From Schmidtea nova (taxonomy: Eukaryota), in assembly GCA_044892505.1 (NCBI GenBank), contig CM097882.1, positions 97,278,001 to 97,342,000 on the forward strand: a DNA stretch of 64,000 nucleotides, in the 5' to 3' direction. The stretch's first letter is position 1, and each line of letters opens with the position of its first letter. The translations under genes were made by a program, and so were the position numbers. This document shows positions 7,682-47,100 of the stretch, piece after piece. The notes under the pieces were generated by a model. The model worked only from the letters and a program-made list of their open reading frames with translations, was not told the DNA's origin and did no database searches.

Positions 7682-8753
7682 CCGTATTTTCGCGCAAATA
7701 ACCCTCGGGTTATACAAGTTTTTACAAACAAACGGTCGCTGTGCGGTGTATACAAGGGTGCGGGGTTTACAAAAATAATTTTACTCATAAAACTTTTACC
7801 TTCAATAGAGGTTCACGCATTTATCCACTGTGTTAAAATCTGTAGTTTTGCTGTGTGGCTCTCAAATGTAAAACGAATACACAACAAACACTCCCTGTGG
7901 CAGTTTCTCAGGTGGCATTGTCACTCGTTTGAATATAACCATTGGTTTCAACTTCTCACCAGCAGCTGAGCATGCCAGGACAACTGTGAAACATGTGCGC
8001 TCATGTCCAGTTGTGGTAATAGGAACCGTTTTAGAACCAGTATTTGCGACAGTGCGAGTGGCTGGAATATCAAAAGACATAGGCACCTTATCCATGTTAA
8101 TGACATCGCAAGGATTTAAGTTCTGTTCTGCAATATCTCTTCTAACAAATTCCTGAAAGTCGTCTACTTTCTTTTCCCAATTCTCTGGTAGTTTCTGGCC
8201 AACCGTTATGAGTGCACGAACGGAAAGTTGATTACGTCTCATGAATTAAAAAACCCAGTTAATGCAGCCATTATTTTCGCTTTCAATTTAATACCAACTG
8301 TTGACAGTGCCCTGTTGTTCTCACGCTGAGAGCGAACCCATGCTGAAAAGTTTGTCTCAATCTGCGGCCATCTAACCTTTCCCCCTCGGCAAGCTCTTTT
8401 GCGTGGATTAATCTGCTCTAAACATTTAAAGTCTTTTCGTCATTCACGAATAGATTTTTCATTAACATCATACTGTCTCCCAGCGGCTCTATTCCCCATT
8501 GTAGCAGCAAGCGCATAAACTTGTAGCTTAAAATAAGCGGTATAAGACTTGCGCTTTGGCATTTTAGGCGTAACAAACACTACTGAATACCTATAATGAA
8601 TGTTAATGATTATTTAATGATTAATGATTAATGATTAGTTATCCTTGCACATATGCGGGGCATACATAGGTGCGGGCTATACGATTTCTCTATACTTATT
8701 ATTTAATTTGTGCGGGTTATATGCGTATGCAGGTTATATGCGCGAAAATACGG
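7682..8753 (-). mobile_element. pogo-family (POGK/Passer-like) DNA transposon, internally deleted
   Basis: TIRs CCGTATTTTCGCGC / GCGCGAAAATACGG with TA duplication; minus-strand transposase from ATG 8562 (MPKRKSY..., HTH, DINMDKVPMSFD, TTGHERTCFTVVLAC, KPMVIFKR). Confidence 0.93.
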
Positions 8754-9820
8754 TAAGTTGTATTTCTACTACAAGCGAAAAGCTTTTGACTTTATATGCA
8801 AGAGTCGATAGTTTAACTATTAAATTTATCGATTCTTGCCAATTTTTAAGCAGCAGCTAAAACGATTTTGTAAAGACTTTAACAGATTTTCCTCTTACTT
8901 CATCCGAATTTCTAAGGACTATTAATACTTCCAAAGGTATATTCCCATATAATTTTGCAACGTCGTTAGAGATTTTACAAAATACATATGAATTGCCACC
9001 GATTTGGGAGGGAGTTAAGATCGACGAGTATGAAAAAGCTCAACATATATGAGATGAATTTGATTGTGAAACATTGTTTGATTAAATGATGTTATACCTG
9101 AAATTGGATCTTTTCTTACTTGCCGACTTATTTCAACAATTTAGGGAAAAATCTATTGAACATAACCGACTTGAGCCTCTTAATTTCTTGGGAATTCCAG
9201 GCATGTCATGGAATTCCGCTTTGATGACTTTGAAATCTCTTATCGAATTTCTTCAAGATATGGAGATGTATAGTTTTTTTGAAGGGGGGATTCGTGGTGG
9301 GTTAACATTTGTTAACAAACACCATGTAGTATCTTCCGACGACACTGAGCTACTTTATATAGTCATTAATAATTTATATGGGTGGGCTTTAAGCCAAAAA
9401 TTACCTTATAAAGAATTTAAATGGGTAACTGATAGGGAAAAGTTAAATAAAATGTGAATCTGCTGATTTAAAAGTATTAACATTTGGGTTTACATTAGAA
9501 GTCGATTTAAAAATTCCTGATTCGATTCACGACAAACTGGATTATTTTCCAGTTGCCGCTAAAAAGATGTGTTCACCTGGCACAAAGGTTGAGAAGTTGA
9601 TGCTTACGCATTATTCCAAGAAGAACTATGGTCTTCATTGGAGACTTCTCAAACTTTATTTTTTTCTTGGAGTAAAAATAACTCATGTCCATAGGGTAAT
9701 TATAATTAAACAAACATGTATTTTTAAGGAGAACATCGATACCAATACCAGACTTAGAGCAGAATCAAGTAATGCTCTGGGTAAAAATTATTATAAATTA
9801 TTAAATAATAGTCTCTACGG

Positions 9821-10467
9821 CAGTGGTTCTCAACCCGTGTTCAGCGGAACATCAGTGTTCCGCGAATCCGCTTTCAGTGTTCCGCGAATCCGCTTTCAGT
9901 GTTCCGCGAAAAAATCTGCATTTTATCTTTAAATTTGCATTTAAGATACATATCATTAAAAATCTCAATTATTTTTTTATAAGATGATTCAATAAGAAAC
10001 CCGTTACACAGATATATAAACATACAAAGATAAACTAACAAATATAAAAACTAAAATGCGTGAAAGAATGGGGAATTTAGAAGAGGAAATGAGAGTTGCG
10101 TTGTATTTTATCCAACCTGATATTTCTGAAATTTGCAAGAAATACAATTCAAATATATCACATTAGTTTTTTTACTGTTTTACTTTTGTTGTATATATGT
10201 TTGCGTGTTAATTGCACTGTGAATGTTTATTTCTTTTTCGTGTAAGTATTTCTTTGTTGAATAAATTTGTTTTTTTGGTAATGTGCGTTTATATTTAATA
10301 TCTTCAAGACCATTTATTAATAGAGGATGGTTCAAAAGTCGTTTCATTAATCAAAAATGAAATAATATGTTCGTTTGTGAATTTTTTAATATATTTTTTG
10401 ACAGTGTTCCGCGTAAAAAAATCATCTGAAGGGTGTTGCGCGCTTTTAAATTAGTTGAGAACCATTG
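9821..10467 (+). mobile_element. hAT (Charlie/Buster-like) non-autonomous element
   Basis: TIRs CAGTGGTTCTCAAC / GTTGAGAACCATTG; 8-bp TSD CTCTACGG (9813-9820, 10468-10475); C-terminal transposase remnant NLEEEMRVALYFIQPDISEICKK..ISH. Confidence 0.94.
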
Positions 10468-10599
10468 CTCTACGGTAAAACCGTAGAGAATCTTAAAAAC
10501 GCATAAATATAAGATCATGAAATTCGACTTCTAGGCTGATTACATATACTTCTAAGCCACCAATCTGGGTAGGTGTGATTTAAGCTGAATATGACATGG

Positions 10600-10885
10600 T
10601 TCAAATTATTTGGAAGGAATTCCAGTGTCAAACTCTTTGTTAATAAATGATAATCTATTTAAAACTTGATGTGTTTCTTTTAGCCGACTTTTTCCAACAA
10701 TTTAGAGCTAAATCGATTGCTCACAATCGACTTCAACCTTTGAATTTTCGGTGATTCCAGTTATGTTGTGGGCTTTTGCGTTTATTGCCTTGAATGAACG
10801 ATTTGCTACAGGATATAAAGATTTTTAATGTTTTCGAAAGAGGGATCCTTGGTGGTTTGACATTTGTCAACAAGCACTATGTAGT
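10600..10885 (+). pseudogene. Second, diverged polB fragment paralogous to ~9050-9330
   Basis: Reads EFQCQTL..YLKLDVFLLADFFQQFRAKSIAHNRLQPLNF...FERGILGGLTFVNKHYV. Confidence 0.85.
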
Positions 10886-11750: not shown

Positions 11751-11828
11751 ATGGAAGCCGAACTCAATAATGAACCACCGACTGAGTTGCAGATGATTCA
11801 ATTTAAAATGAATGCCGCCACAGATGAG
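11751..11828 (+). CDS. snap25: SNAP-25 coding exon 1 (MEAELNNEPPTELQMIQFKMNAATDE)
   Basis: ATG at 11751, 26 codons, GT donor at 11829; resembles the SNAP-25 N-terminus (TEL...ADE); joins exon 2 in phase 0. Confidence 0.92.
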
Positions 11829-11908
11829 GTTTATTTCATCATAAACCATATTTCTCAATGCTTACATCAAAAACTTTAACGACAATTTTAACTTTAATTT
11901 CATTTCAG

Positions 11909-11950
11909 TCTTTGGAAAGTACAAGAAGAATGCTGGCAATGTGTGAAGAG
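11909..11950 (+). CDS. snap25: SNAP-25 coding exon 2 (SLESTRRMLAMCEE)
   Basis: catttcAG acceptor, GTGAGT donor, 42 nt; diagnostic SLESTRRML motif. Confidence 0.97.
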
Positions 11951-12027: not shown

Positions 12028-12076
12028 GCCAAAGAGGCAGGCATTTCAACATTGGTTATGCTTGATGACCAAGGAG
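12028..12076 (+). CDS. snap25: SNAP-25 coding exon 3 (AKEAGISTLVMLDDQG-E)
   Basis: AG/GT bounded, 49 nt, ends in phase 1; SNARE motif 1 with the zero-layer Q. Confidence 0.96.
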
Positions 12077-15765: not shown

Positions 15766-18700
15766 TTAAAATGCGTGATATTCTTTTCGTTACAATTAAA
15801 TTCAAGCTGCTGAAGCCACGCTCGCATTCTGAAGAACTGAAAGCTATAATTTTAGAATATTTTTTAACGTTTCCAAATCGTCTGAAATGTTACGACCACC
15901 ACAAGCCAAGTAATCTCTAAAGGCATTTAAAAATATCCCCAAAAGTAAATTAAAGCGTTTGCAGAGAGATTCTACTTTTTTTTTCTCCAAATTCCATATT
16001 AATTTCAGATGGCCAATCGGTTGGTTCAAGAATTTGCAATTCTTTAACAATGTCGGAACTGTCGAAAGTCAAAATTCCGTCTAAACCTGAATAATTTGCA
16101 GATGTAGTGTTAAGCCTATTCCTCATACTATTAATAATATAACTAATTAAGAATTGATTTATGTGAATCAATTTTGCCATTTTATTATCCGTCAACCGGG
16201 CCCGGCGCCAGGAATGAATCAATGGGGGGGGCGACAATTACTGATACTGGTGGGCAACCCCTTAAATTTTAAATTACAAAAAAATACGGTCCAATCGACA
16301 TTTGTCTTAATGTCTGAGAGTATCATCCTATATTTATCATCATATTTAGAACCCTTTGCTCATCCATATATCAAATATTGATAGATAAAAGCCAATATTG
16401 GTATATTCTTCTTTAACAATACAAGAATATAAAAAACACATGCAGCATGTGTTCAACATCAGTATAAAAGCAGGCTTTACAAAATCAGACACCGACTACT
16501 CTCCTGAAATAATGGTAGAACATATTCGTAACTGACGAGCTTCGATTCTTCCTTCTCATAAGCTAATAACGCCAGGTCTAGTTTTCTTTGCACAGCCTTG
16601 CACTTTCAGTAGGGCGACATTAAACTCGTAAATATTGAGAATGTTGCCTCACATGTTACTGTGGAAGCCGGCAACAGAAGAGAGCAACAGATAAGGTGAT
16701 AAAAGTGTGGGAATGCATCTCTGTAATTTGACATGAATGAAGCAAGAACATCTAATTTTTTTGAATTGACAATAGATGATTTGTTAATAAGCTTTTTCGC
16801 GACGACAATCTCAGCAGTCAGGAATTTGTCAGTAAATTTCTTATCACTTGCAGCTACAAGACTTTTCAATGGTTCAATCTTTTGTTCCTGAAGGAAAATG
16901 ACTTTGTTACCAGGTAAAAGTGCATCCAGCGCCGCAATCAAATTGCAGTTTGATTTGGAAAAACGTGACTGAAATTCATTAATTACTTCATCCAAAATCT
17001 GGAAAAACTCTTGACGATTGCCATTTACATGGAATTATTTTCGTCTTCGCAAACTGCATTACTCAACGTGCTCATAATAAGGCTGCAGTGAAGTCTTTCA
17101 GGAATCTTGCGTGACCGTTTTTGTAGAGGTTGAGGAGTTAAGGAATGTTCCTGAACTTTTGCTAACAAATTCTGCATTTCATGTGCAGTATACTTAGCAT
17201 TAGCAGGTATCGTTTGAGAAATCTCGTTCAATTTGGGATCAATATCAAGTGTGTATTTACACATTTGAAGAAATTTCCCACTATTTACATGTCTCAAAGC
17301 TTCAACATCTCCACGCGAAGCCAGCTCATTAACAGCTATCCATTTTGCAATTTTAACAAGCTCACAAAAATAATATTTGTTTCGCTCAATTCGGATAGAT
17401 CGCAATTGTTCCCCTATTGTTTTGCCTTGCTTTTCTCTCATTTTCTTTTCTTGCCAACATTTCATCGCATTTAAATGAACTTCTTAACTCTCGTGTTTAC
17501 TTAAACTATTCTTTTGATCTGTACCACTTTCCGAATTAGAGTAACCAGCTACAGTAAAAGTGTCTACATTTTCATCAGAACAATGTGCGAATTTCCGACA
17601 AGCAAAACAAAAGCCATTATCTGATTGGCTCGAATACTTCAACCAAGGATGACTGGACCACCACTTTGATTGAAAAGAACGATTCACTCCTTGTATTTTG
17701 ATTACTGGGTAATTTCGTTTAAGAAGTTGCATTGGTTTGTCATCGCCAAAGTCATTCGGAGGAATCTTTGATAAAGATGTGAATTCTACGAAAAAGGCAT
17801 AAAGGCGATAAAGCTCAAATAATGTTACTCACCGTTTGCAATTTCGCCCTGTTGGCCTGCTTGATTTGCTTGAGCATGAGAAGTTAGACCAGGAGAAGCA
17901 ACTGAAGACGTGGTCCCCACACGAACAGAACAAGAACAGTAATCCATCAATGGTTTTTGTTGCTTTGACATCTGGTTTATCCAAAGCAACACGTTAACTT
18001 TTTATAATATACAAAGTTGCAACACTTACTCTTATAGATCACAATGCCTTGCAATGAATGCCAGCTGTCACACTGTAGTAACAAGGAAGACAATTGCATT
18101 GATAATACATACACCGCTAGCAAGCCAATCCTGGAAGAAGTTATAAGTCGATCGCTGATTGGTTTCAAAGTGATATTATAAGTCTGCGCGTGTATGAGAA
18201 GGGCTATAGTGTTATGAGAGTACATTCATAAATAAGAAAGGTTGTATTACAATATAAGCGGTGAGTGGTGAATGCAGTAGCCTGAGATGTGTGAGAAATC
18301 AATGCATACTCTATTTAGAAAACAGAAAATTTATTGCAAACAGCAGTGTTTGCCATCGTAGTAGAAAAATAGGCATCTCCATTTGGGGGGCATTTTCCTT
18401 TTCATGAGGGGCATTGCCCCAAATGCCCCCTGTGGCGCTGGGCCCGCCGTCAACGAAATTGAAGATAATTGCATTATTCCACAAGCAGGAACTGTTTCCA
18501 ACGAAGTTCTTTCCTTTCTGAGGATCTTAAATATTCTAAATAAGTGATTAAAAATATTTAAACTACCTTCAGTTTATTTTATTTAAAAGGGAAAAATAAA
18601 CAAGACACAAAAAGCAGGATAAATTCTCTGTTAATTAACACATTTTTTGAAATGTTTTTGCGAATTCGCCAATTTAAAATATAATTTTTATTTGAAATTA

Positions 18701-22414: not shown

Positions 22415-23719
22415 CAAATGAATATTATCAGAGCAAAGTATACATTCAATTAGAAAAAACACGAGACCAGATAAATTTCGTATTTGAGTGATCAGGACCT
22501 ATTCTAGGTCGAGTGTTCAAAGTTCAAATAATAAAAATGAAATTGGCCTACCTATTTATATGTAAACGCAATATGGAATGAGATATATGTTAGGAATGGT
22601 CGACCAGCATAGTAAATATGTATCACTTCATGCCATTAAATATATATGCGAAAACACCGCTGCCATAATATTTCATTCAAGTCCTTATTATCATTCAGTA
22701 AACGAACAAAATGAAAAATAATATAGGAAAATTAGAAACGCAATTCATATTTCCTTGAAAGACAAAAAGTATATGAAATCGGCTGAGTTGTTACTAGAAA
22801 TTGAGTCTATAGTAAACTGTAGCTTCCAAAGACGGCTGGCCAACCTTGAAATGAGAAATATGAGACAACCATTGCAAGGCGTTTCACAGTTGTATGAGAA
22901 GTGCAACTAACGAGATACATATACACATTGCCGGATAACGTGTTGGAGCTGCTTATGTAACGGCATGGTCTGATGAATGGCAACGGGTGCCAGTCAGACC
23001 CGGCTACTATCCCGACCAGCCCTGTCACGCATCTGCCCTAAACCCCGCAATAATTTAAATAACCGAATTTCAGTAATTTATAGAAAATCCGAATAAATCC
23101 TAAACGAAAAAGATATATTTTAAATAAATATTTCCTTCTCAGATGTACTACTGTATTGATTTTCCATTCCTGTCAGGGAATGATTGACTCTATTTGCCAA
23201 TTGATTCCATTTTAATCCGCATGGATTCCCATTACCATTTCATGCTTGTTCACTGTGGGCTTTTCTGCAACAATAATAAATAATTAATTACATTTTGTTC
23301 AGTTGTCGTGCTTTATCAATTAACTTCGGTGACTATTCACAGCAGTTTTGTTGTGGAATTGTCATAGATAGCACCAGGCAGCTTATAGATTTATTGAATT
23401 GTTGACAATAATAAGGTTCCCTTTTATTGCATACAGTCATTATATACAACCATGTTAGAAAATCGTAAAACACTGTAGAGCCGCAAGATTTTTAATATAA
23501 CTTAAATTAATTTTTATTACCATAATTAATTACTGAATAAATGTATTTTATATTATTTATGAAAAATTTATGTTTACTTACATCTACGTAGGCGTTCTTA
23601 AATAAAATTCCTAAAATTTCGTTTACATATTAAAATTTTAGTTACAACTTAAACTATTGAGCCGCAAAAAAAATCAAAGAGTCGCAGTTTGAGCACCTCT
23701 GGCCTTTAGGATCATTTGT

Positions 23720-24400
23720 AATAAATGCAAAGAAAATTACATCGGAAACACCTTTCGGACTCTGCATCAGAGAATTAAAGAACATTTTGATCCTNNNNNN
23801 NNNNNNNNNNNNNNNNNNNNNNNNNNNNNNNNNNNNNNNNNNNNNNNNNNNNNNNNNNNNNNNNNNNNNNNNNNNNNNNNNNNNNNNNNNNNNNNNNNNN
23901 NNNNNNNNNNNNNNNNNNNNNNNNNNNNNNNNNNNNNNNNNNNNNNNNNNNNNNNNNNNNNNAGCGAAAAAGACAACAAAATCTCAGACTGAAAGAAGCT
24001 ATTCTCATTAGAGACAAACACCTAAAAATTAACTCTAAATAGGAAGTTTGCGAAATCGCCCACTTACTACCTTGTTAAAAAATATTTTTGTTTTACAAAG
24101 GAGAAAGAAAAAAGGAAATAAAAGAGAATGTACAGAAAATATATGGGCATTTCAAAGAGATACATTTTTCATGTATAATTAAATTAGTTTTAAAATTTAA
24201 ATATAATGGGTTAGAAAATTAGAATATAAAATACAAACTTAACTAAAGAATTTCAAATTTATGAAAAGATAATATTTTGCTTTGAAATTGAGAAGATTTT
24301 TTTAAAATAAAAAGTAGATTTATATTTATTTCTAAAAAATTTTTAATTTTAAAGTTTTTTTTATTTAAAAAAATATTAAAATTTATATTAATCAGATTTA
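23720..24400 (+). mobile_element. Penelope-like element: GIY-YIG endonuclease end and 3' flank (gapped)
   Basis: KCKENYIGNTFRTLHQRIKEHF before the gap and LRLKEAILIRDKHLKINSK after it; the same 3' segment occurs inverted at 35823-36430 and 57052-57620. Confidence 0.8.
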
Positions 24401-24547
24401 CATCCAATAATAACCGTAAAACATAGTTTTTAAAACTCTCTATATTTCACTCTTAATTTTTATCAAAACTGAAATTTCAATATGCGTTCTCAATGCTATG
24501 AAATATTTATTCAAACTTATATAACATATTTTAGATATAATTACGTT

Positions 24548-24826
24548 ATCTCATTAATCCGAAGTTAATGAATAGATAAGAATTTATATTAAAATAGGGA
24601 AATAAAACTAGATTTGACAAATTAATATGTTATTTAAATTAACCCATTTTCCGTGATCGGATCAATCTGAAATTTTGATAGCATGCAGTGTTCTCGACAA
24701 CGAATCTACTTGCCAAATTTCAGCTCGATTCTATCACAGGAAGTGGGTTAATTTGCCGTCGCAAAATTTGCGTGGCACAATCAATCAATCCATCAAACGC
24801 AAAGTTAAAATAAAGAGAGTAAAAAA
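24548..24826. mobile_element. Non-autonomous Helitron/Helentron-like (DINE/HINE-type) repeat, copy 1
   Basis: Homologous to 27721-28014; internal inverted repeat TTAACCCA..TTCCGTGAT / ATCAC(A/G)G(G/A)A..GGTTAA and a microsatellite-like tail; class assignment is inferred. Confidence 0.55.
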
Positions 24827-26002
24827 CAAGGTAATTCACGAGAAAGGTTGATAAGGATTATTTTATAATCAAAAATTTAAGCAGAAATCGCTTATTTTGT
24901 TATTTATTAATTATTTAATACTTAATTAATACTGTTACCAAGAAATCACAATTTTATATGTTTTTATATGTTATATTTTATATTTTATATTTTTTTATTT
25001 TTGTTTTTTTTTTAATTTTAGATTTAATAAAAGTTCTTGAACAAAGGTAGTGCCAAAATTCGAGACATTTTGATCTATTTATTTAACATGAAAATATATG
25101 ATATTGAAAAAAGATCAAATGTTTTTTAAACATTACATTAAAGATATTAATAATAATAAATCTTGTTGATTCTAAAAAGATTTTTTATTTAAATTGTTTG
25201 AATATTTTTATTTTGCGAAAACTGTTACCGGGAAAAACATGAGGAAGAAAAGATTTAATTACAAAATGTTCTGAATTTTGTAATAATATAAAAAGATTTA
25301 TTTTTCAGATAAAATAAAATCAAAGTTTTTCGCTTTTTTATAGATGGCACAGTTTCCATCCTACCCTTCTTTTTGCCTTGAAAATTCCCCCTAATTCTAA
25401 TTCTAATTCCAAATTCAAATCTATTATTTAAGTTTTCAATTATCTAATTCACATTTCTCTCTTTTAAAGTTTCTATTTTATCTTTCAGTAATGAAATTTT
25501 TTTCGTATTTTATTCAATTAGTGATAATTTTATTTTTTAAGTTTTCAGTTTGTTTAATTTTATTCAATTTTGTAAAAATTTCGAGAACTGGTTTACCTAT
25601 ACTCTTTAGTAATGTATTGTAAAGAATTTCTGCCATTGACTATTTGTTGTTTTTTTTTCAAATAAAAAAATGTTTATTTTTATAGAAATTAATTAAATGA
25701 AATTGACTATTTATTGTTTATTGCAATTGACTNNNNNNNNNNNNNNNNNNNNNNNNNNNNNNNNNNNNNNNNNNNNNNNNNNNNNNNNNNNNNNNNNNNN
25801 NNNNNNNNNNNNNNNNNNNNNNNNNNNNNNNNNNNNNNNNNNNNNNNNNNNNNNNNNNNNNNNNNNNNNNNNNNNNNNNNNNNNNNNNNNNNNNNNNNNN
25901 NNNNNNNNNNNNNNNNNNNNNNNNNNNNNNNNNACTATAGATCAAAATTTTTTTTTATAAACAATAACACAATATTTCGGCACAGCCTTTATCAAGAAAT
26001 AC

Positions 26003-26035
26003 ACACTTGATAAAGGCTGTGCCGAAATATTGTGT
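26003..26035 (+). ncRNA. Minimal type I hammerhead ribozyme motif, U3-A8 core variant (PLE-associated)
   Basis: ACAC-UUGAUAA-A-GGC(UGU)GCC-GAAA-UAU-U-GUGU; stem I extends via AAUA/UAUU; palindromic AUAU stem III. Confidence 0.7.
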
Positions 26036-26432
26036 TATTGTTTATAAAAAAAAATTTTGATCTATAGTCATTATGAGAATTATTGATAATAATAATAAAA
26101 AAAGATCAAAGGTNNNNNNNNNNNNNNNNNNNNNNNNNNNNNNNNNNNNNNNNNNNNNNNNNNNNNNNNNNNNNNNNNNNNNNNNNNNNNNNNNNNNNNN
26201 NNNNNNNNNNNNNNNNNNNNNNNNNNNNNNNNNNNNNNNNNNNNNNNNNNNNNNNNNNNNNNNNNNNNNNNNNNNNNNNNNNNNNNNNNNNNNNATTGTA
26301 CAGAGAATTGTAGCTTTATATATTCATAAGGCGGCAGACTCCTTATAATTTTTTGATAGCATAAGAACTAAATGTTGAAGATTTATAATTAAATAAGTAG
26401 AATTTGTTATATAAATTCTAATTGACTTGTAG

Positions 26433-26550
26433 AGCAACTCGATCGAATCGACGAGGGCATGGATAAAATCAACCAGGACATGAAGGATGCCGAGAAAAAT
26501 CTTGATGATTTGAATAAATGCTGCGGGCTGTGCATTTTGCCTTGGAACAA
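26433..26550 (+). CDS. snap25: SNAP-25 coding exon 4 ([39 protein letters not shown])
   Basis: ttgtAG acceptor, GTAATA donor, 118 nt; end of SNARE motif 1 plus the palmitoylation Cys cluster; phase matches exon 3. Confidence 0.97.
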
Positions 26551-27720
26551 GTAATAATTTGTTTTATAGTATTTTAATAATAACTGAATATTTAAATTTT
26601 TCATTTTCGAATCTGCACTGAAAAANNNNNNNNNNNNNNNNNNNNNNNNNNNNNNNNNNNNNNNNNNNNNNNNNNNNNNNNNNNNNNNNNNNNNNNNNNN
26701 NNNNNNNNNNNNNNNNNNNNNNNNNNNNNNNNNNNNNNNNNNNNNNNNNNNNNNNNNNNNNNNNNNNNNNTGGATATGAGTAAATATTCATTCAATATTT
26801 CACACCCTCCCGCCGAACATAGGCTAATTTGTCGCTTCCATCGGCCGAATGCTAGCCTTGCACGAACTACTTCATTATCTAATTGATGGACTTAATGAGG
26901 GATTAGCTGTGAATAAAACCGGGAGATTCAATTATTCCATAGAACTCCTGTTTGTTCGGTAGAAATTTCATAAATAATCGAGTTAGAATTGTCTCTCAGT
27001 CTGTTAATCGAAATCCACTGGAAAACCTTTTAGAAATTTTGAAAATAATTTTAATATATATTGTAATAAATGACAATTTTTATCATAAGATTTATTCACT
27101 AAATGCTTCTATTTTTGCCTATAAATTTTCCCGTTGATTGGACTTCGGTTTCTTTAATAACTTCTACGACTTGTTCGACTTCAGTAAAAACTTTAATGAT
27201 TTCGTTTGACATTATCAAATTGGATTTTGTAGCTTTCTACATCAATATTTTGAAATTGGAAAAGATTTATGTAAAAGAGACTAAATAAGCAATACGGTTT
27301 TAATATAATAATAAATTTAATATAAATTTAATAAATAAAATTTTAATTAGGCATCCCGAGTAAACTTTTCTAAACTTTTATTTCATTTAACAAAAGGAAA
27401 TAATACTCGGTGATTTCAATTTCTTTAATAATTTCTAAATGACCACGTATTTTCACGCAAAATGATGTTCCGTTTTGTCAGAATAGTGTAATATATTTAA
27501 AAAAAATATTTACTAGGAATTTTTTATAATAATAATTTTTATTTAAAAAATTTAATAAAGTAATCATAAAGTATTATAACATTTTACTTTAATATTATTT
27601 AGATGCGATCACACGTATATGTACAAATAAGTTATGAAAACCAACCATCAAAAACATGGGTTTTCAAACTCTCTCTCTCAAGTATTGCTCAAAGAATGAG
27701 CCAACAGCAATAATTAGGCT

Positions 27721-33124: not shown

Positions 33125-33970
33125 GCCTTTTTGCACAATATAGAGATTACCTTTCTTAAATGACACTACAGCCAATAAAATCACCAACATTTTTGACCAT
33201 ACAGATTTGCTATCCACATCCGTCTTACTTTCATAACCTCCGCACCGTTAAAATCACAACTCCGAAAGCCACCGATTTCCAACATCTCCAAACATAAATG
33301 TATTTGCCGTTCCATAACCAGATGCTTTTGCTTTTCCAAAAATATAGTATATAAACTTTCTTGTCAAAGATTTGACGCTACTTACATAGGAGAAACACAT
33401 AGAACTTTTCGCACCCGATTTAATGAACGTACTAAAAACAAAACCAGTAATTATTAGGAACACTGGGAAAAGTACATAAAACAACTTCATTTATAGAAGA
33501 AACGAAATGCCAGATTCTACAAGAGGGATTCAAAGATTCATTACAAAGATTAGCTTCCGAGACTTTTTACATCAAAAAATATCAAACCGTCAATCAACAT
33601 TCAATTCGCACAAAAAAATCATGTTTATAAAGAATATTAAAATAATTTTTTTCCATCCAATAAGATCTTTATAAAATATAAAATAAATAATTAAGGTTAC
33701 TATTTATGATTAAGTTAATATAAGGATTGAAATACACACTTGATAAAGGCTCTGTCGAAATATTGCGTACTTGTTTAAAGAAATTTTGATCTATAGTCTT
33801 AGCATTATGGGAATTATTTATATTAAAATAATTAAGTTGTTCTTGTAATCAATAATAAATTTTGAATTAAAATTTTATTTGCTATGTTCTCTCAATTAAT
33901 CCCCATTTAAACTAAATTAAGAGGTGCTATGTTGGCTCGTACGTCGAGAGTTCCCGATTTGTTGGAGGTT
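33125..33970 (+). mobile_element. Penelope-like element 3' part: GIY-YIG endonuclease, pLTR and hammerhead motif
   Basis: IVYKLSCQRFDATYIGETHRTFRTRFNE at ~33343; hammerhead-like motif at 33736-33768. Confidence 0.85.
33736..33768 (+). ncRNA. Hammerhead motif, U3-A8 variant, slightly degenerate
   Basis: ACAC-UUGAUAA-A-GGC(UCU)GUC-GAAA-UAU-U-GCGU; one G-U pair in stem II and one mismatch in stem I. Confidence 0.6.
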
Positions 33971-35822
33971 TAATAGTATTTAATAGTATTTAATAGTATT
34001 TAAATAATAATAATAATATTATTTATTTATTATTTATTTATATAATTTATTATATAATAGTATTTAATAGTATTATCATATAATAATAATATTAATAATA
34101 ATAATAATAATATTAATAATAATATTAATAATTTCATTCAATTTTGTGAACACATATAAATCCCGAAGGCCGCTTGAAATTACCAAAGTAATTGTTTTTT
34201 CTAATCAATTTAAACGGACAATTGTGAATAATTGATTTTTAAATAGAGAAATGGAAAAAGCAAATTCTCTGTGAAATCCTCGCACCTTAGAGTTCCATTA
34301 TCGATTACAGACATTTCCTGTATCATACGCTCACTAGCTCATCTGTTAATTTGTCAGATTTTCGGGTTTTTTTCATGTGCTCTACAAATTTTGGTTTTGC
34401 ATTAATAAAACGAAATTTGACTGAGTAATAAATAAATAAAACTCTTATCCTTCCAATAGGATGTATTGATTTTATCGATTATTTCCCATTGAATAAAATT
34501 ATTGATTTCAATTAATTTCATCATTCAAAGACAAAAATGAAAAAAAATATTGATTTGAATTTAGAAAAAAAATAGTTTTCTTTTAAATAAGTTTATATAC
34601 TACTTTTTAACAATAAGTTCATAACCAATAAAGTTTTGACTTCGAGTCAAGAGGACGGAAAAAAGAAGANNNNNNNNNNNNNNNNNNNNNNNNNNNNNNN
34701 NNNNNNNNNNNNNNNNNNNNNNNNNNNNNNNNNNNNNNNNNNNNNNNNNNNNNNNNNNNNNNNNNNNNNNNNNNNNNNNNNNNNNNNNNNNNNNNNNNNN
34801 NNNNNNNNNNNNNNNNNNNNNNNNNNNNNNNNNNNNNNNNNNNNNNNNATTTCATCTTTAATGTAAATTCAAATTAATAATTTTTATTCATTATTTTCAT
34901 TTTTATCTGGAATTCTTGATAAGCGATCAGCAGCAAAATTTGATTTTTCTTATTAGGTATTTAACTTGACTGCCTTACAACTATTATTAAACTGTCCAAT
35001 TTTACGTATCTTATCAAATAGTGGCTTCCAGGGGCGTTGACAGGTCTTTTCTAAAAGGGAGAGAGCAGAAAATATATTTTCGTAAATCATTTATTGTGAA
35101 ATTTTCAACAAATGCTTACTAAAAATTATTCTAGTATTAAATTTTCTCGTATTAATAAAAGATGTAGAATTTATATTTACTTATGTAATAAAAATATTTA
35201 TACAAATACCAAATTGTTAATAGAGAAGATCAAGAGTTGTGAGTAGTGTTCTGTCTACACCATCAGACCTCTCTCCCACTTAAAATCAAATTTTAAGGTA
35301 AAAAAGCATGTCAAGTTCGTTTTAAGGACAAATTTTAAGACTAAGTTCGATTTAAGGTCATCATTAGGACAAAGTGGTGCTAAAAATCACAATTAGTTAC
35401 AAGATTTAAGCTATGTTAAAACATAATATATTTCTTAAGTAGTCATTATTAACACGAAGACTTTAAAATTTGTACACAAAAATTAATTCTCTTAAAGATG
35501 GTTTGAATATAGTTTTGTCTACATTTTGTCTACGCATGTTTTTTGGAAATATATTTAGAATATTTTCTGTAATATAGAATTTACTATAATAAACCTAAAA
35601 TTTATTTTTCCCTAAATGTTTTGTTTTTAAATTGTATAAGAACAAATCACCAAATAAAAANNNNNNNNNNNNNNNNNNNNNNNNNNNNNNNNNNNNNNNN
35701 NNNNNNNNNNNNNNNNNNNNNNNNNNNNNNNNNNNNNNNNNNNNNNNNNNNNNNNNNNNNNNNNNNNNNNNNNNNNNNNNNNNNNNNNNNNNNNNNNNNN
35801 NNNNNNNNNNNNNNNNNNNNNN

Positions 35823-36430
35823 CTTGGTAGCAGCATTAAGTATTAAATTAATTAATAAATAAGTAACAAAATAAGCCTTTGCTGCAAAAACAATTTTATT
35901 AAGTGAGAAAATTTTCGATTATAAAATAATCCTCGTCAATCTCTAATTTGGCATATAACTGGTATCTTCATTCATTGTGCTGTTTTTTTTTCTCGTGAAT
36001 TATCTTCCTTTTCACTGGATGGTAATCTGATTAATATAAATTTTAAATTGTTTTCTAAATGTTTTTTGTTAAAAATTTTAAATATAAAATTTAAAAAATT
36101 TTTCTAAAATTTTTTTCCTTTTATTCTATTTTTAATTTTTTTTCCAACCCTTTATATTTGAATTTTTTTTGAATTTAATTATATCTCTTTTAAATGCACT
36201 TGTATTCTCTGTATTTTCTCTTTTCTTCCCCATTTTTTCATTTTCTTCATTTTTTCTTTATGTTTTTAACAAGATAGTACGTGGCCGATTTCGCTAACTT
36301 CCTCTTTAGAGTTTATTTTTGGGGTTTGTCTCTAATGAGAATAGCTTATTTAAGCCTGAGATTTCTTTTTTTCGTCATTTTCGCTTGTCAATATTCTTAC
36401 TGATATTATTTTTTTCCCTTATTTTCCACC
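35823..36430 (-). mobile_element. Penelope-like 3' fragment inserted in the left arm of the Polinton derivative
   Basis: High similarity to 57052-57620 and, inverted, to 23985-24400. Confidence 0.75.
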
Positions 36431-36681
36431 TGACATTGTAATAATAATAAATATAATAATAAAAATAAAAATAAAAGTTTAAAATTATATTAAAACCACG
36501 GGTTACTAAATTAAAAACTTCACTATAAAAACTCCAACAGGTCACTATACTAAAATTGTTAACCAATAAAAAGAAAATAAATATCACAGGTCATTATATA
36601 AAAGAAAATAAATGATATAAACAAAAATTATATTCTATCCAAATTATATATTTAGACTTGATCCCCTTCATCCGGTACATG

Positions 36682-37255
36682 TTAATGGTTATAGTTTGAT
36701 TGATAATTTTCATTCATGGTATGTGAATTAAAGTCTGTATTGTCATTAATTTGTAATCGAAGATTTGAATCGGAATTTGATTGAAGATTATCTATAATAG
36801 AATTAACTATTCTATAATGCCCATATGCATAGCTAATGTTCGGACCCACCCATTTACGCTTATCGTCTTTATTTGATAGAGATAATTTATTATTTTTAAT
36901 TGTGTACAACTGGTGGTTTTTACTAGTGATTCGAGTTTGTGGTACCACAAACATCGGATTATTATGATAACAATCCAGGTATGATGAGTTAATTCAAGGC
37001 CTTTCATTGTTACCCCTTTAGATTTCATGTTATCTACGCCCAAACTATAACATTTCGGCCTAAGGAATACTCACTCATAATATTTGAGTATTTTTTTCCT
37101 CATCTTTGAACTTGTCAAGATCTTTAGAATATAATTGATAAGTATTGCCATAATTCGATGTATCGATTAAACGCTCTCGAACCATTGCCGGTAAAAGCAC
37201 ATCTAGTTTACAGCCTTTAATTTGCAAAAAGAAAGAATCTGTGTACATCGGTGGG
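36682..37255 (-). pseudogene. pPolB C-terminal fragment (motif C to the end)
   Basis: MYTDSFFL..IDTSNY..DKFKDE..LRPKCYS..KSKGV..SKNHQLYTIKNNKLSLSNKDDKR..YAYGHYRI. Confidence 0.88.
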
Positions 37256-37621
37256 ACTGAACATTAGCATTATAGAATAGTTAATTCTAATTTAGATAAT
37301 CTTCAATCAAATTCCGAAGAAGATTCATAACCACAATTACAAATTCACGACAATAGACTTGAATTCACATATCGTGGATGAAAATTATCAATCAAAATAT
37401 TACCATCTACATTTCCCGGATGAAGGGGATCAAGTCTAAATATATAAGTTGTATAGAATATAATTTTGTTAATTTCATTTGTTTTTTTTATATAATGACC
37501 TGTGATATTTATTTTCTTTTTAGTGGTTAACAATGTTTAGTATAGTGACCTGTTGGAGTTTTTATAGTGAAGTTTTTAATTTAGTAACCTGTTGTTTTAA
37601 TATAATTTTAAACTTTTTTTG

Positions 37622-37627
37622 TTATTA

Positions 37628-37702
<75 letters not shown>
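37622..37702. repeat. (ATT)n microsatellite within the right Polinton arm
   Basis: Direct reading. Confidence 0.95.
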
Positions 37703-37703
<1 letters not shown>

Positions 37704-38588
37704 GTGACCTGTTGGAGTTTTTATTTGGTGATTTGTTCTTATACAATTTACAAATAAAACATGTAGGGAAAATAAATTTTAGGTTTCTTGCAGTAAATTC
37801 TATATTACACAGAAAATAATCTAAATATATTTCTAAAAAACATGAGTGTAGTAAAGTCAAAACTATTTTCAAGCCATCTTTTTGAGAATTAATTTCTGCG
37901 TATAGATTAAAAAGTCTACGTGTAAATAATTAGTACTCAAGAAATTTATTACTTTTTAAAATTGCTTAAATCTTGTAAATCTTTTTGGTTTTTACACCAC
38001 TTTGTCCTTATGATGACCTTAAATCTAACTTAGCCTCAAAATTTGATCTTAATGGGGGTCTAGCCGTGTAAACACTAGTCACTACTATCAAGTTACAATA
38101 TTTTAGCTACAGTTTAAATGTTATCCATTACTGTGAGTCACATCAGTTGTCCATATATGATAATTCTAACTAGTCTACTTCAAATGAGTTCAATTTATAA
38201 AATGCAATTCTTACGCCATGGGTATAGTTCCAGTAAATAAATTATACTAGCCACTATATTTATATTTAATCTTCGTCACTTTGGAACTTTTTCCGATTTC
38301 ATTTATTTTCATATTTTAGGCAACAGATAAAAAATTTCTTTTATTCAGCAAAAATTTTTGATACTGCCTTTTACAAGTATGAATTATAAATATTTGAAAA
38401 AACACGCCGACAATTTGTGTTAAATTGAAAATATTTTGATCTATCGTCTGAAATAATTAAAACAAACCTGCTAAGATATCACAGAAATTCAACGTTATAA
38501 AATATCCTTATCTGCCAGACAATAATCAAGTGTATCTCCTTTTCATTATTTTCATTATTATAGATGTTTTTATTTTTTTACTTCATAG

Positions 38589-38711
38589 GGTGAAGCGCGA
38601 CGATTATGACAAAACTTGGAAGAAAGAGGAAGCTGGGAAAGACAACGCAGACGGTCCGAGGATTGTGATCGATCAAAATGGGATGGGCGTGCAAGGAGGA
38701 TACATCACAAA
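38589..38711 (+). CDS. snap25: SNAP-25 coding exon 5, linker (VKRDDYDKTWKKEEAGKDNADGPRIVIDQNGMGVQGGYIT-K)
   Basis: ttcatAG acceptor, GTAATT donor, 123 nt, phase 2/2; ends in the GGYI linker motif. Confidence 0.93.
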
Positions 38712-39844
38712 GTAATTCATTCCTTAATTGAATCAATTTCCCTGTTAGTCAATTATTTGCCACCTATTGGTTGATGAGAATGTTGTATGTGCTTGCAAGT
38801 ATCAGTTTTCAATAGTTTCCTCCCAGTTACTGATGATATATTTTATTTTGCTGCAGTTCTCCCCATCATTATCTAAAAATTGAAACCAATTTGTTTGTAT
38901 CTTTCAAACACAAAAGACGACATCAAACTGAATTTTTTGCAGAATATTGAGGAAAATTAATGATGAATATATTTTTTAAAATTTTTCTTATTCATTTTTT
39001 GTCTATCAAAAGTTGATTTTGCCACTTAATTGCCCGTATATCAGTTCATTATACATTACTTCTATTGTATACGGTTGGGGAATAGCACTGTATAAATGGA
39101 TATCAGACTGACTCATTTTTAATTATGGACCACTGGATGTTGCTCTTATACAACAAGGACCGCGTGAACATTGCGTTAATTGTCTGGGAAAGGGGATATT
39201 TCAATATTTATTGTTTGTGTTCTTTTATGGGCGTGTCTTGGTAACACATTTATCCCGTGATCTTTTTATTTAGTGTTTATAAATATAAATATTCCCGTAC
39301 TCAATCTCACCTCGGCCGATAGAACACGCGCAATAGTAGCATCAGTATGTCTGATGGGGAATATTCATCTACATTCGTTATATTACCAGGAGGTGCGAGA
39401 AATTGGGTTTTTGATTAGTATATTTAATCTTCATGTAAGCTTACACGAGTATTGTTCTCTACGAATTCAATTAAGGCAAGAATTTTCGAAGGGTTTATTA
39501 ATTGAAATATTTCGTGTGGATATAAGAAAAGTAAAAGTAATCAAAGAGTCAATCGGAAGAACATAAGATCAGTTAAAATTTGTGTTTGAGTGACCTGGAC
39601 CTATTTTATTTAAAAAAAATTAATAAACCCTTCCAAAAAGACTTAGCTTAATAAAGGTAATAACAATCAATATATTAATAAAAATTGTTATTTGCAATTA
39701 TATTACACTCGTTTTCTTCTGAAGACATAATTAGATTTTAATAATAACAAAATTTAATTCCAAAAATTATGTTCTTTTTGAAACATATTATTCAAACAAT
39801 ATTTAGCAATAATATTATTTGAATATTTTTCTGAAGCATCAATA

Positions 39845-42460
39845 AAACTGTCCAACAAATTTTAACCTTCAAAAAAATTCAAAAAAGTTATCATGTGTTC
39901 CAGGGTAATTCGATGCCGCTGATTTCGAATCTGAGGTTCGTTATTTTCTCGCACCCTTGGTTTCTTTGAAAAATATACAATCAGTTTTTCATTTTTACCA
40001 TTTTTTACCCTTTTACAAAAGAAATTGCAACGTAGTGGATGGGTTCAATGACTTAAATTACTTGACTAAATTATTACATGAAGCATTAGATAACATAAGT
40101 TCCAGCAGTAGTTTGCAAGCATTGTTGGGGACCATTAGCTTTTATAGCGTTTCTCCATAGCAGCGATATCTTGGCGGAAACGCTCCTTTATGTTCATCAC
40201 TGACGCTACTTATGTTCTTTGGGAAGAAATCCAGCTGGGACATTAGAAAATGAAGTTTCAAGGACATTGCATTTTAAAGCTTCATATGCATGGAGTAGTC
40301 GATGAACAAGTTTAGCGCAATTGGGAGAAAGATGATTTCTCAAGAATCCTTTGCACACTGTTTGAAAGTCTTTCCATGTGACCAGTTGTAGAGGATTCAC
40401 GGTCTGCTCAAAATGGTCATCTTGTAGAAGGTCTCTGATTTTTGGCCCAATGAATATTCCTTCCTTAATCTTTGTCGTACTGATTGATGGTAATTTTTGG
40501 CTAAGATAGTAAAATGCTACGCTTTCCCTATCAAAGTCTTTCGTTAGCTGCTTTATTAAGCCAAGCTTAATGTGCAACGCTGGTAGGATGATTTTGCGTC
40601 TGTCAATCAAAGAGTGATGGATGACGCTGCTTGTTCCGGGAACGCTGACACTGTGCAGTGGCCAATTTCTCTGTGTGAAATGGTTGAAACGGTCTCGGCT
40701 GTTCTACAAACAAATGAAGCAGCAGTATTTTGTGTATTCTAGCTAGAGTCCAGTTAGGATGGTGACAACTTTTAAGCCTACACAGATGTCCTATTTCTTT
40801 TCATCATAGCGAATACACTGAAAAATCTTTTTTATGTTTTCGTAGTTCTCTCGCATACAGACAGAATAAGCCACAGGTACTGATGGGTATCTGTTACCAT
40901 TGTGAAGGAGGACGGCCTTGATACTGAAAATAGATGCATCGATAAAAAGACGCCATTCTGTTTTCTCATACTCAATATAAAATTGTTGGATCCAAGCAGG
41001 GATGCTGTTGCAGTAGCAGAGATCGTCGCTCATTAAAAATAATGTTTACAAGCTGTAGTTCGTTTCCAGAAAAAAGTGATTATGGCATTGGGATCTAACA
41101 AGATCCATCCTTGGAGTCGTGACGCCAGGAGCTCTCCTTGATCCTTTGTAGGATTCAAATCTCTCATTGAGTCACTCAGCTCCCCTTGCGTTATGATATG
41201 AGGCAGTGATAAAGGTGTATCAGGAACTGGATGAAATGAGGGATCAGTATTTTCAGTTATAATTGCCGATGAAGTGTCACTAGAGGAGGTTATCGGGAGA
41301 GATACAGGTGGTGGAGGACTAACAGATAATTCGATGGAATGCGGGATTGAGCAAATAACGGGAGGAAGGCTGGGATACGAAACATTTTTCCTGTATTTAT
41401 CACGAAAACAGGTGACAGGCGAGGCACAGAAGTAACAGTCAGATGATTGATCACGCTGTTCACACCATATCATGGGAACTGTGAAAGGAAGAGGTTTTTC
41501 ATTTCTAGACCAGGCGTAAAGCTCTGATGTACATCTCACTCAGCAAATGTGGATAACCTATGATTTATCTTGCTCGCCAACTGCGCCGCTGATGTACATG
41601 TTGTAGAGTTGAATGACCTTCTTTGTGAGTGTACGACGATAATTCTTTATGCTATATTCGCCACAGATGTAGCAAAATTTGTCAGGATGGTTTAAGCAGC
41701 CTCGTGAAACCATTGCAGTGTGAATCTAAAAATGACAGATGTAAGGGAGTAATATAATACTGAGGTATAAATATGAAACTTCTGTTTCGTCTCTCAACTG
41801 TACAATGTAAGCCACTAATATTTTATGTTTCATCGTGCCCCTTCACATGAATGTCTCACATATTACCCTATACTTTGCCATCGTGACAAACCTACTATCA
41901 CGGTTGATATGTAGCACTTGTGACAAGTGTTACGTATCAACCGTCACAACTCGTGTGTATGTGTGTGTTATGTGTATGCCTGTTCCCGCAACGTATTTGT
42001 ATGAGTCATAATATAATACGTAGTCGCTCGCATACAGGGTTATGCGCATGAACACACATATCACACACTTATCTTCTAAATCCTCTATATTATAGAGTCT
42101 ATAAATATGTGAGGATGTAACTACGTCAACATGACGATTTGGACAGTTTATTTCAACATGTTGCAATATTACAGGGCGGGACAATAAAAAGGACCATTTT
42201 TGAAAAAAGGCAATAATTTTAATTCATTATTTCTTTATGTCAGCCTTCGCCGATTTTGATGCGGTTTGTTATATTATAAAGAGCATTAAAATATAATTTA
42301 TTATTATCTATATATTGCAACAATCTGCATCCAAATCGGCGAAGTAAAATTATCTATTTTTTACAAAAATAGTCTTATTTTGGCCCAAAATGTACTATAT
42401 TCTCTTTTTCACGAAATTGGAAGGTGCCAGTTATAAACGAACTTCAGATTCGGAACCTGA
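39845..42460 (-). mobile_element. CMC/Chapaev3-like DNA transposon relic (transposase ~41713 to 40060; element ends uncertain)
   Basis: MVSRGCLNHPDKFCYICGE, PMIWCEQRDQSSDCYFC, WRLFIDAS, VLLHNGNRYPSVPVAY, LPALHIKLGLIKQ, SVSDEH..RQDIAAMEKRY; family assignment from recalled motif pattern. Confidence 0.75.
42172..42392. mobile_element. Tc1/mariner-type MITE with an internal palindrome
   Basis: TACAGGGCGGGAC start, GCCCAAAATGTA end; internal inverted repeat TTCGCCGATTTTGATGC / GCATCCAAATCGGCGAA. Confidence 0.55.
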
Positions 42461-44109: not shown

Positions 44110-47100
44110 CACCAAATTTTGTTTTGACAAAATGGTAAATTCTCGATCAATTGGCAAATAAGTTCGTAAATTTTGCAGGTGTCAAACAGGAAATAATACT
44201 AACTTCCCTGTTAGATTATGACCTCAGAAAGAAATATAAAAGCATCGACATAAAGATCAAATTCTACAAAGAGAGAATGAGGACGGCATTTAAAACGGAA
44301 AGAACAGTATTACAAGCTATCAAACTAGCACTGGCATACAAGCAAACAAACGAAGAACTCGAATGATACTTCGAGATAATAGACAAAATTGTGGATAAAA
44401 TCTTTGAACGAGAATGGACAAAAGAAGATCTGAAGGAGAAGCTCTTAATATGTGAGAGCTCTTAAATGTGAAAGAGTTAAAAAGGAAGTATGTCTAAATC
44501 AGATCAAAAGAATAGACCAGATAAAATTGAAAATCACAAGGTTACACGAGGCATATAAGATGACGGAGGATATTATGGTCATAGAAAAAGTAGACTAGAA
44601 TCAGAAAATGTAAGAAGTTACAGAGATGCAGCCAGAAAGAAGAACAATAATACACAGAGACCATATATGCAAATCAAAGCAATACTATAAGCCGGAAGTA
44701 AGAAGAGATTACGAGAATCAACAAAACAAGAAAGAGATGGAATGTTGGACTTTTCACCAAGTAAGTCATTTAAGTCGAGACTGCCCAAAAAAGATGACCA
44801 CGTGCTTCGGATGCGGAAAAGAGAGAGATATCAGAAGAGAATGCTCAAATATAAGATACAGGAGATGTAAAAGAAAGGATTTTAAAGAAGCTGTGTTACA
44901 CAAATTTAAACCGACAAGAAACAAGAAGATTAAATTTGAACGAACAGTATCAAAGAAATGGTTGATATCAAAGAAAAGGTGGATATCAGAAATATGTAGA
45001 ACAAGGATGAATGAGAAGAAAATCAAGGGGAACCAGAGATGGATATGTAGCGAATATCGAGGAGAAGTTTTCAGGAAATGGAGAGTTTGAAGATCGCAGA
45101 TACCCAAACGATAATGATCCGACAGAAGATGAGATAGTCGGAGTAATATATTAAATAAATGGACAAACTCCAAAATTATGAATTATTATAGTATAAGTAA
45201 TATATTACCTATTATTGAGAACACATTAGAGAGTGAGCTGACAAACGAGGAAATTGTATGCACAGCAAATAAAGTAAACATATTTTTGAAGAAGGATTGG
45301 AGAATCGGTAAAGGTAAAAGGAATGCGACTGATGAAAGTATAGATATTATGGATTTAGATAAACAGAAATATAATATAATAAGATATGACAAAATGCAGG
45401 GCCGACCAAGTGTAACAATCGAGATCAATGGAGAAGTCATGGAGTGTTTATTGGATACCGGAGCAAAGGTTAATGTTATGAGCTGGAAAAAAATTAAGAG
45501 ATTGCGAGGTTTTGGACAAGGACAACAATAACACACCGGTGTGCAAACGATGGAAAATTAGAAATAAAGGATAGTGCCGAAATGAACGTCAATTTGAATT
45601 GTATGGAGAGAGAAATAAAGTTCACAATAGTTGAACAACTAACACCAGAGGTTATCGGAGGCATTGAGATGCAACGGAAATTTGGCATTGATTTAAAGTT
45701 TAGTAATACTCATGACGAAACAGAGACAAACAACCACGTTGGGAACATAGAAGCCAAATTTGGGAGAGTTATTACAGAAGGAGAACGGTTTCAGAAGGCC
45801 AGAGATACAATGAAGATAAAAGATCCGAATATTATAGAATTATTAAGGAAGAAACAGAATGGGATTATGGCAGATAAATGGGATACATAATGTCAAAAGT
45901 TATTGAAACATAGAATTCAGACACAATATTAAGCCGTGGAGGCAACCGATCAATTTAGAAGGAAAGATTGATAAGCTGTGGGAGAATAACATTATCAAAA
46001 AGTTTAATTCACCTTGGAACACGCCGTTAATTTGTGTGTGGAAAAAAGAGAAACAGGATGTCAGGCTGTGTCTAGATTTTAGACAGTTAAATTTAGTAAC
46101 GGTGGACATGCTTTCCCAAATGCCAAATATATCAGAATTATGAGATAAACTGGGGAGCTCAATACTTTACTTCGATTGACCTGGGCATTGCATACTATCA
46201 GGTTGAGCTGGATGAAGAATCAAAAGAAAAGACAGTTTTTTCAACGAAGGTAGGACAGTTTTGCTTTAATAAAATGACATTTTGGAATAGCAGCAGCACC
46301 AGGAAAGTTTCAGGAGCTCATGCTGAAAGTGTTGGAAAACAGAGCCGGTTTACTTGGACGACATCTTAATATTCACAAATTTATTCAATGAACACTATCA
46401 AGTTCTGGATGACGTATTAAAAAGAATAGGGAAAGCTGGTTTGAGAAATAATCCGGAGAAATACCACATTTTGCAAAAGGAGGTTAAGTTCCTGAGGCAC
46501 ATCATCAATGAAAAGGCCATTCAGACCGACCCAGCAAAAACAGAGTCAATACGATCGTTTCCAAGACAAAAATGTATCAAGAGTTTGAGAAGCTTCCTAG
46601 GGATATGTAATTATTACAGTAGATTTATTGAAGGATTCATGTAGATTATTGGAAGGAATTTGAATAGTGAGCAATATCAGAAATGACAACGTCGATTGGG
46701 AATAGAAACTTTGCTTTTCAAGTCCATACCATCAAAGTACGAACGGTATCATAGAGATGCAATTCAGAACGATAAGGGATTACATAAATACGTCACTGAA
46801 GGAGAGGAATAAAACAGATTGGGCAGAAATATTGCAGAAATATAATTTATACTGAATGCAACAATAGAGAAGTCGATTGGTAAGAGTCCAGTAGAAGTAA
46901 TATTTGGACGTAAAATATTTAGAGAACGATGAAACACAAGGCATGGACTGCAAATCAGAAAGTCGGAGCTAAAATGAGGAACATCTGAACAGATACCAAC
47001 AAAGAGGTCTTTCAATCAAGGAGAAAAAGTGCTAATCAAGGTAGGATCAAAAGCGAAAGAAAGAGATAGATATGAAGGGCCGTACGAGATTAAATAGAAA

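Follow-up and report, generated by a model that had tools for sequence, protein, structure and literature searches.

A Polinton-derived foldback fossil with precise boundaries in intron 4 of a planarian snap25 gene

An intron of the planarian snap25 gene contains a 2.85-kb element with Polinton-type ends, long inverted arms, and a fragment of a DNA polymerase gene (polB), which raises the question of whether a small element integrated here ready-made or whether a longer Polinton collapsed after its insertion. The initial annotation had favored the former, proposing that the element was integrated as a unit in trans and represents a MITE-like or defective-interfering satellite. The window, i.e., the entire stretch of 64 kb that was analyzed, consists of AT-rich animal DNA with 13 N runs in all. 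Mapping of a planarian SNAP-25 protein on the window yielded six exons with 88–100% identity (that of Dugesia japonica, which among flatworm proteins matches exon 4 best), which confirms the placement of the foldback in intron 4, ~500 bp before exon 5, in a Dugesia-like planarian (Table 1).

Table 1. Coordinates of the foldback element and of the snap25 exons in the window.
Feature	Position	Strand	Remarks
Left copy of target site duplication (TSD)	35229–35234		ATCAAG, 6 bp
Left terminus and outer left arm	35235–35660	+	First ~300 bp (to ~35535) more diverged, likely the original terminal inverted repeat (TIR)
N run	35661–35822		162 N over continuation of left arm and one edge of insertion
Later insertion	35823–36438	-	Likely Penelope-like retroelement (3' fragment), beside AAT-rich tract
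Inner left arm	36439–36857	+	Non-coding except last ~50 bp (3' end of polB)
C-terminal remnant of polB	36808–37244	-	~Residues 1075–1228 of a 1242-aa relative, motif C to end
Unique loop	36858–37242		Within polB remnant
Foldback junction	37243–37245		polB motif C joined to inverted copy of polB 3' end
Right arm	37245–38086	-	842 bp, unbroken; inverted polB end (37245–~37290) and (ACT)2 terminus
Right copy of TSD	38087–38092		ATCAAG
snap25 exons 1–3	11751–11828, 11906–11950, 12028–12075		SNAP-25 protein mapping
snap25 exon 4	26432–26551	+	SNAP-25 protein mapping
snap25 exon 5	38590–38712	+	SNAP-25 protein mapping; start approximate
snap25 exon 6	59689–59838		SNAP-25 protein mapping

The outer boundaries of the element are well defined. 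The hexamer ATCAAG abuts both termini, exactly as the initial annotation had claimed, and the chance that two random 6-mers of the window match is 8.5e-4. The right end is an exact (ACT)2 and the left end differs from (AGT)2 at a single base (5/6), which agrees with the reported presence of intact Polinton-type ends; the two termini are identical at 14 of their 16 outermost bases. The pair (AGT)2//(ACT)2 is the commonest end motif of Mavericks, and (AG)3//(CT)3 also counts as such (PMC8097293). Together, the polB remnant, the ends, and the 6-bp TSD support the Polinton origin of the element. The exact TSD and the Polinton-type ends suggest that the insertion was catalyzed by a Polinton integrase; the TSD shows only that whatever integrated at this site had the present outer ends, not that it was already small.

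The core of the element encodes the last ~155 residues at the C-terminus of a polB of the Polinton type, in a frame disrupted by stops, small deletions, and a pair of frameshifts. A polB fragment from elsewhere in the window fetched 30 polB proteins, which were then used as queries; 24 of them match the minus strand at 36784–37242 (best E 3e-26), DNA_pol_B_2 proteins among them. The last 62-aa frame of the core alone finds 123 proteins (best E 3.7e-17); the 57-aa frame with motif C has no homolog in a word-indexed search and required the full-length polB queries. Three frames of the core have no match in Pfam, and scans of viral contigs gave none. Remnants of an integrase, ATPase, protease, or capsid are absent from the element, which is matched by the 752 frames of 52 metagenome loci with polB relatives only in polB. 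With polB as the sole gene remnant, the element must be considered a Polinton derivative rather than an autonomous member; it has no intact coding sequence, and a function is not evident.

The arms form two blocks of inverted copies (35235–35660 vs. 37718–38086 and 36439–36857 vs. 37243–37650) with 84–89% identity (BLAST); mismatches amount to ~12% over 757 aligned columns, with many indels. Long terminal inverted repeats are present, because the right arm of 842 bp is matched by the split left arm at ~88% identity. The inverted pairing had been recognized by the initial annotation, as had the split of the left arm by an insertion and a gap, which is the run of 162 N, but the inner limits given for the arms (36815 on the left and 37265 on the right) have to be corrected. 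The nhmmer alignment of 36440–36855 reaches 37243, past a deletion of 13 nt in the right arm, so that the arms run to 36855–36857 on the left and 37243–37245 on the right (nhmmer, BLAST), ~40 bp deeper than first described. The right arm therefore carries an inverted copy of the 3' end of polB, and the unique core, correctly identified as polB, measures ~390 bp instead of ~0.45 kb. The final conserved codons of polB are thus present twice, and their inverted copy is joined to motif C with a microhomology of 2 nt, which is located in an imperfect palindrome of ~20 nt, where 13 of 18 aligned bases pair. Of 12,060 control pairs from the core, 0.6% pair as well at 20 nt but 13% do so at 12 nt and 2% at 30 nt, in a post hoc test that is weak at the latter two lengths. 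Minus the insertion, the unit comprises ~2.1 kb, i.e., two 842-bp arms and a 391-bp loop.

The right arm also contains a (TAT)27 tract at 37622–37702, which is flanked by two 29-bp repeats. An interpretation of the arms as decayed genes was rejected: they have no blastx match below E 0.36 among the 752 frames of the 52 related loci, and a profile of seven small genes located near polB in the relatives gave a best E of 0.09. Rfam returned no matches at E 0.1, and no counterpart of the arms was found in the 52 metagenome loci. The strong predicted DNA fold (z -18.5) restates the presence of the inverted arms.

The insertion in the left arm (616 bp) is likely, rather than proven, to be the 3' fragment of a Penelope-like element. 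Its positions 35828–36410 are 78% alike to a sister copy at 57052–57638, which adjoins a GIY-YIG-like frame with a Pfam E value (0.0015) below the curated cut-off; a reverse transcriptase was not seen there. The insertion reported by the initial annotation is real, and its assignment to Penelope-like elements is likely. Further fragments of this likely Penelope-like family are present at 23660–24942 (related copy 23963–24942) and 57052–57771, each beside an N run.

The core is matched by 38 of the 52 metagenome loci with polB relatives. L005 encodes an integrase, and L004 has both an A32-like ATPase and an rve integrase, which identifies the clade of the core as a true Polinton clade. The surroundings of polB were examined in 32 of the 52 loci; where the DNA downstream is long (L004, L005, L019, L031, and L041), polB points inward at other genes and not at a terminus, so that these relatives give no example of a parent with polB 0.85 kb from its end. 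In our own reading, the genes that it faces would encode capsid proteins, and Pfam gave no label. Even close relatives differ in gene order around polB: a block that is 7 kb away in L005 adjoins polB in L006, in inverted orientation, and an ATPase-like gene follows polB in L010. These differences among L004, L005, L006, and L010 suggest that inversions of modules are common in the clade. An inverted duplication inside a related polB (L030:1–509, with 1–173 vs. 337–509 at 90%) represents either a foldback or an amplification chimera.

The window contains a second degraded Polinton polB at 5909–10628 (+), which covers residues 1 to ~1000 of the relatives at 35–64% identity and is broken by a piece of a DDE_1-like transposon (~7680–8750) and another insert (~9820–10460). 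It is followed by a 70%-alike duplicate of 8995–9330 at 10556–10885 and preceded by a tandem array of a 144-bp repeat with five copies and an outlying unit (3395–4119, 4632–4828), which has no match to the foldback arms. An assignment of this polB and the core, which starts at residue 1075, to a single element was rejected: they are 26 kb apart, on opposite strands, and separated by four snap25 exons.

The copy number of the foldback was assessed with four public sequencing runs from one organism and one study, which contain 50–59% of the sampled words of the window. The survey of contig depth covered 36640–37465 (826 bp of the element) at a likeness limit of 80%, and the summed contig depth does not equal copy number. 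The bin just past the junction (37256–37283) has depths of 48.5, 8.2, 13.6, and 14.7 in the four runs, approximately those of single listed contigs. Relative to this bin, the median depth is ~40–110-fold (42–108-fold) for the polB core in all four runs, 1–4-fold for the left inner arm, and 3–9-fold for the right inner arm. Copies of polB are thus plentiful, while the arm is part of a subfamily that is small and has a few related copies. A depth peak of ~1,200–4,000 times the junction bin at 37032–37087, a conserved polB motif, is present in all four runs and points to a very large Polinton-related load in the genome.

At a likeness of at least 80%, none of the four runs of this study revealed the junction a second time, and the 64-kb window contains no second copy of the element. 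The other DNA windows compared contain no look-alike of the core (the single match was to a phage locus, with 3 of 84 words in common), and the foldback appears to be a single copy. In X1, X2, and X3, the three runs with listed pieces over the junction, it is crossed by contigs with 0–1 differences, which argues that the junction is not an assembly chimera. Loose contig ends at 37244 occur in three of the four runs (8, 4, and 5 contigs), exactly where the polB homology starts, and show that other copies leave the element there, most likely with polB running on. In other contigs, with a likeness of ~85%, the end of polB is continuous with DNA of the inner arm (36691–36910), so that the left side is a natural layout of a small subfamily. 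Two opposite-strand joints (36920/37179 and 37018/37399) are present in all four runs at the depth of a single contig. The former has a microhomology of 5 nt and shares its axis of symmetry with the element itself (sums 74099 and 74100); it may reflect a further foldback or else an inversion that affects a different copy. The latter, which involves a near-identical core, is likely either an allele that lacks ~36693–37017 (~0.33 kb) or a second copy.

The divergence of the arms bears on the order of events. If the foldback had integrated ready-made, its arms would have been identical at the start and should have decayed evenly. However, mismatches affect 47 of 242 columns outside ~35535 and only 44 of 515 inside (p 0.002 in a permutation over all splits, which takes columns as independent). 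With columns near gaps removed, the counts are 40 of 218 for the outer and 43 of 458 for the inner part (p 0.025). The outer ~300 bp are thus 18–19% diverged and the inner part 9%, an approximately twofold difference, although a first split, fixed at the outer 426 bp, had reached no more than p 0.064. Such unevenness argues against arms of one age at the time of integration, but clustered changes or later gene conversion between the arms could be the source of the step, and conversion could mimic it. The pattern is better explained by a history in two steps, in which ~300-bp TIRs have diverged since insertion and an inner portion of ~540 bp was copied later. The unevenly diverged arms and the single-contig depth of the junction in all four runs do not support the proposed integration as a unit in trans as a MITE-like or defective-interfering satellite.

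Tentatively, we favor an origin by collapse in place, in which a longer Polinton inserted at this site and lost its interior by template-switch repair that copied its left end onto the right. To judge from the TSD and the ends, a Polinton integrase would have inserted the longer element and duplicated ATCAAG, whereupon the TIRs of ~300 bp began to diverge. After a break in the interior, the right end may have paired with the left TIR as a repair template, been extended by ~540 bp further inward into the 3' end of polB, and been joined at the 2-nt microhomology to the left fragment at motif C, with the loss of everything in between. The Penelope-like fragment, frameshifts, and small indels, which are evident from the structure, would have accumulated thereafter. 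Such a collapse is suggested by the exact TSD and end motif, the inverted polB codons that end at the junction, the depth of the junction, and the step in arm mismatches; the loose ends at 37244, the 85%-alike contigs with the layout of the left side, and the palindrome at the junction point in the same direction. What counts against it are the p value of the fixed split, the assumption that columns are independent, the post hoc nature of the palindrome test, and the reach of the depth survey, which comprises one study and 826 bp and gives summed depths rather than copy numbers. The inward orientation of polB in the relatives is a weakness that this account shares with the two alternatives considered next.

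With the sequence of one end at both ends and a loop in between, the element has the anatomy by which PMC13506859 defines copy-back genomes. During extrachromosomal, protein-primed strand-displacement replication, a nascent strand might have folded at motif C and copied back to its end, yielding a two-ended product of ~2.1 kb that was integrated once in trans by a Polinton integrase. The microhomology and palindrome at the junction, the exact TSD, and the single-copy depth are all compatible with such an origin, and the polB end duplicated in the right arm would speak for it if the native TIR stops short of polB. The arms should then be of one age, however; given the twofold higher divergence of the outer ~300 bp, a later conversion of the inner arms would be needed, and we consider a one-off copy-back somewhat unlikely. 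A plain internal deletion, with breakpoints in motif C and inside the right TIR of a parent whose long TIRs already held the polB 3' end, would be consistent with the lengths of up to 1,447 bp documented for Polinton TIRs (PMC8097293), with the TIRs of ~2 kb that contain duplicated core genes in Pieris (bioRxiv 2025.02.07.637071), and with the TIR-like subrepeats of the right arm. Yet among the best-supported loose ends listed (there are 256 weaker rows besides), no TIR edge is evident within the end of polB, and the divergence step would go unexplained, so that we consider it unlikely. For the amplified family mobilized in trans that the initial annotation envisaged, one can cite the depth of arm-like DNA (1–9 times that of the junction), which shows that a few related copies exist, the additional single-depth opposite-strand joints in all four runs, including the axis-symmetric 36920/37179, and the fact that non-autonomous Polinton families are named in print (PMC9341505). 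This reading is nevertheless very unlikely, since no amplified family with this junction was seen at a likeness of at least 80% in the four runs, a limit that old, diverged sister copies could escape, and since the window and the other windows compared revealed neither a second copy nor a look-alike of the core. A foldback chimera of the assembly would be in line with the N run in the left arm, the limited share of sampled words in the runs, and the joint suggesting that the runs may lack ~36693–37017, but it is hardly credible in view of the 12% distance and many indels between the arms, the near-identical contigs across the junction, and the exact TSD.

A more far-reaching possibility, which we regard as quite unlikely, is that the subfamily repeatedly makes copy-back genomes, which fold within the 3' end of polB and become integrated in trans; the element and the joint 36920/37179 would then be fossil defective-interfering genomes of a polintovirus. 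If true, such repeated copy-back genomes would be evidence of extrachromosomal panhandle replication. Likewise, several independent foldbacks with TSDs of their own, if found, would indirectly support the assumption that Polintons replicate through a panhandle. Panhandle replication figures in a title in the reference list of PMC9863843.

The foldback resembles Polintons or Mavericks in its (AGT)2//(ACT)2-type ends, 6-bp TSD, and long inverted ends (PMC8097293) and in its protein-primed polB, which is reduced to a C-terminal remnant but has relatives located beside an rve integrase and an A32-like ATPase. By contrast, its length is 2.85 kb instead of 13–25 kb (PMC8097293), remnants of an integrase, ATPase, or capsid are lacking, and most of it consists of arms that duplicate the polB end. 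General features of Polintons are described in bioRxiv 2023.08.22.554363 and PMC6431247. According to PMC8097293, 96% of the vertebrate Mavericks are degraded fossils, and one toad Maverick has outward-pointing modules.

Names such as Polinton-1N1_DR denote non-autonomous repeat families, and Kapitonov and Jurka reportedly described non-autonomous Polintons in 2006. The foldback shares with them the presence of Polinton ends without working genes, but whereas those are known as repeat families, no second copy of the foldback junction was found. The name Polinton-1N1_DR appears in PMC9341505, Tlr1 elements are sometimes termed non-autonomous polintons (PMC5499653), and no non-autonomous Polinton copies are reported for the anole (PMC3014272). 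The partial Polintons of Caenorhabditis elegans have polB beside a TIR without an integrase at 10 loci, including a TIR-driven rearrangement in a host gene; the available portion of this source differs in that it does not describe a foldback with a duplicated polB end (bioRxiv 2024.01.15.575659). Copy-back defective viral genomes are similar in that one end is reverse-copied onto the other and a loop is left (PMC13506859), but the foldback in snap25 is chromosomal and old, has unevenly diverged arms, and exhibits no sign of amplification or interference. A literature search over a partial collection of papers listed none on a planarian foldback Polinton.

The element is a real, well-bounded Polinton-derived foldback fossil, and its status as a family or satellite is not supported by the present evidence. 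A single collapsed fossil matters little on its own, as most Mavericks are degraded; a junction mapped to 2–3 bases in combination with arms of two ages, however, offers a clean test of in-place repair versus copy-back replication. Other mobile elements have also left traces in the introns of snap25, where a degraded gag/protease-like piece of an LTR retroelement and a piece of a hAT transposase occupy 44614–45890 and 16606–17828. Short, near-perfect palindromes are present at 25934–26068 (135 bp, 93%) and 42245–42344 (100 bp, 76%), the former of which is related to 33729–33831.
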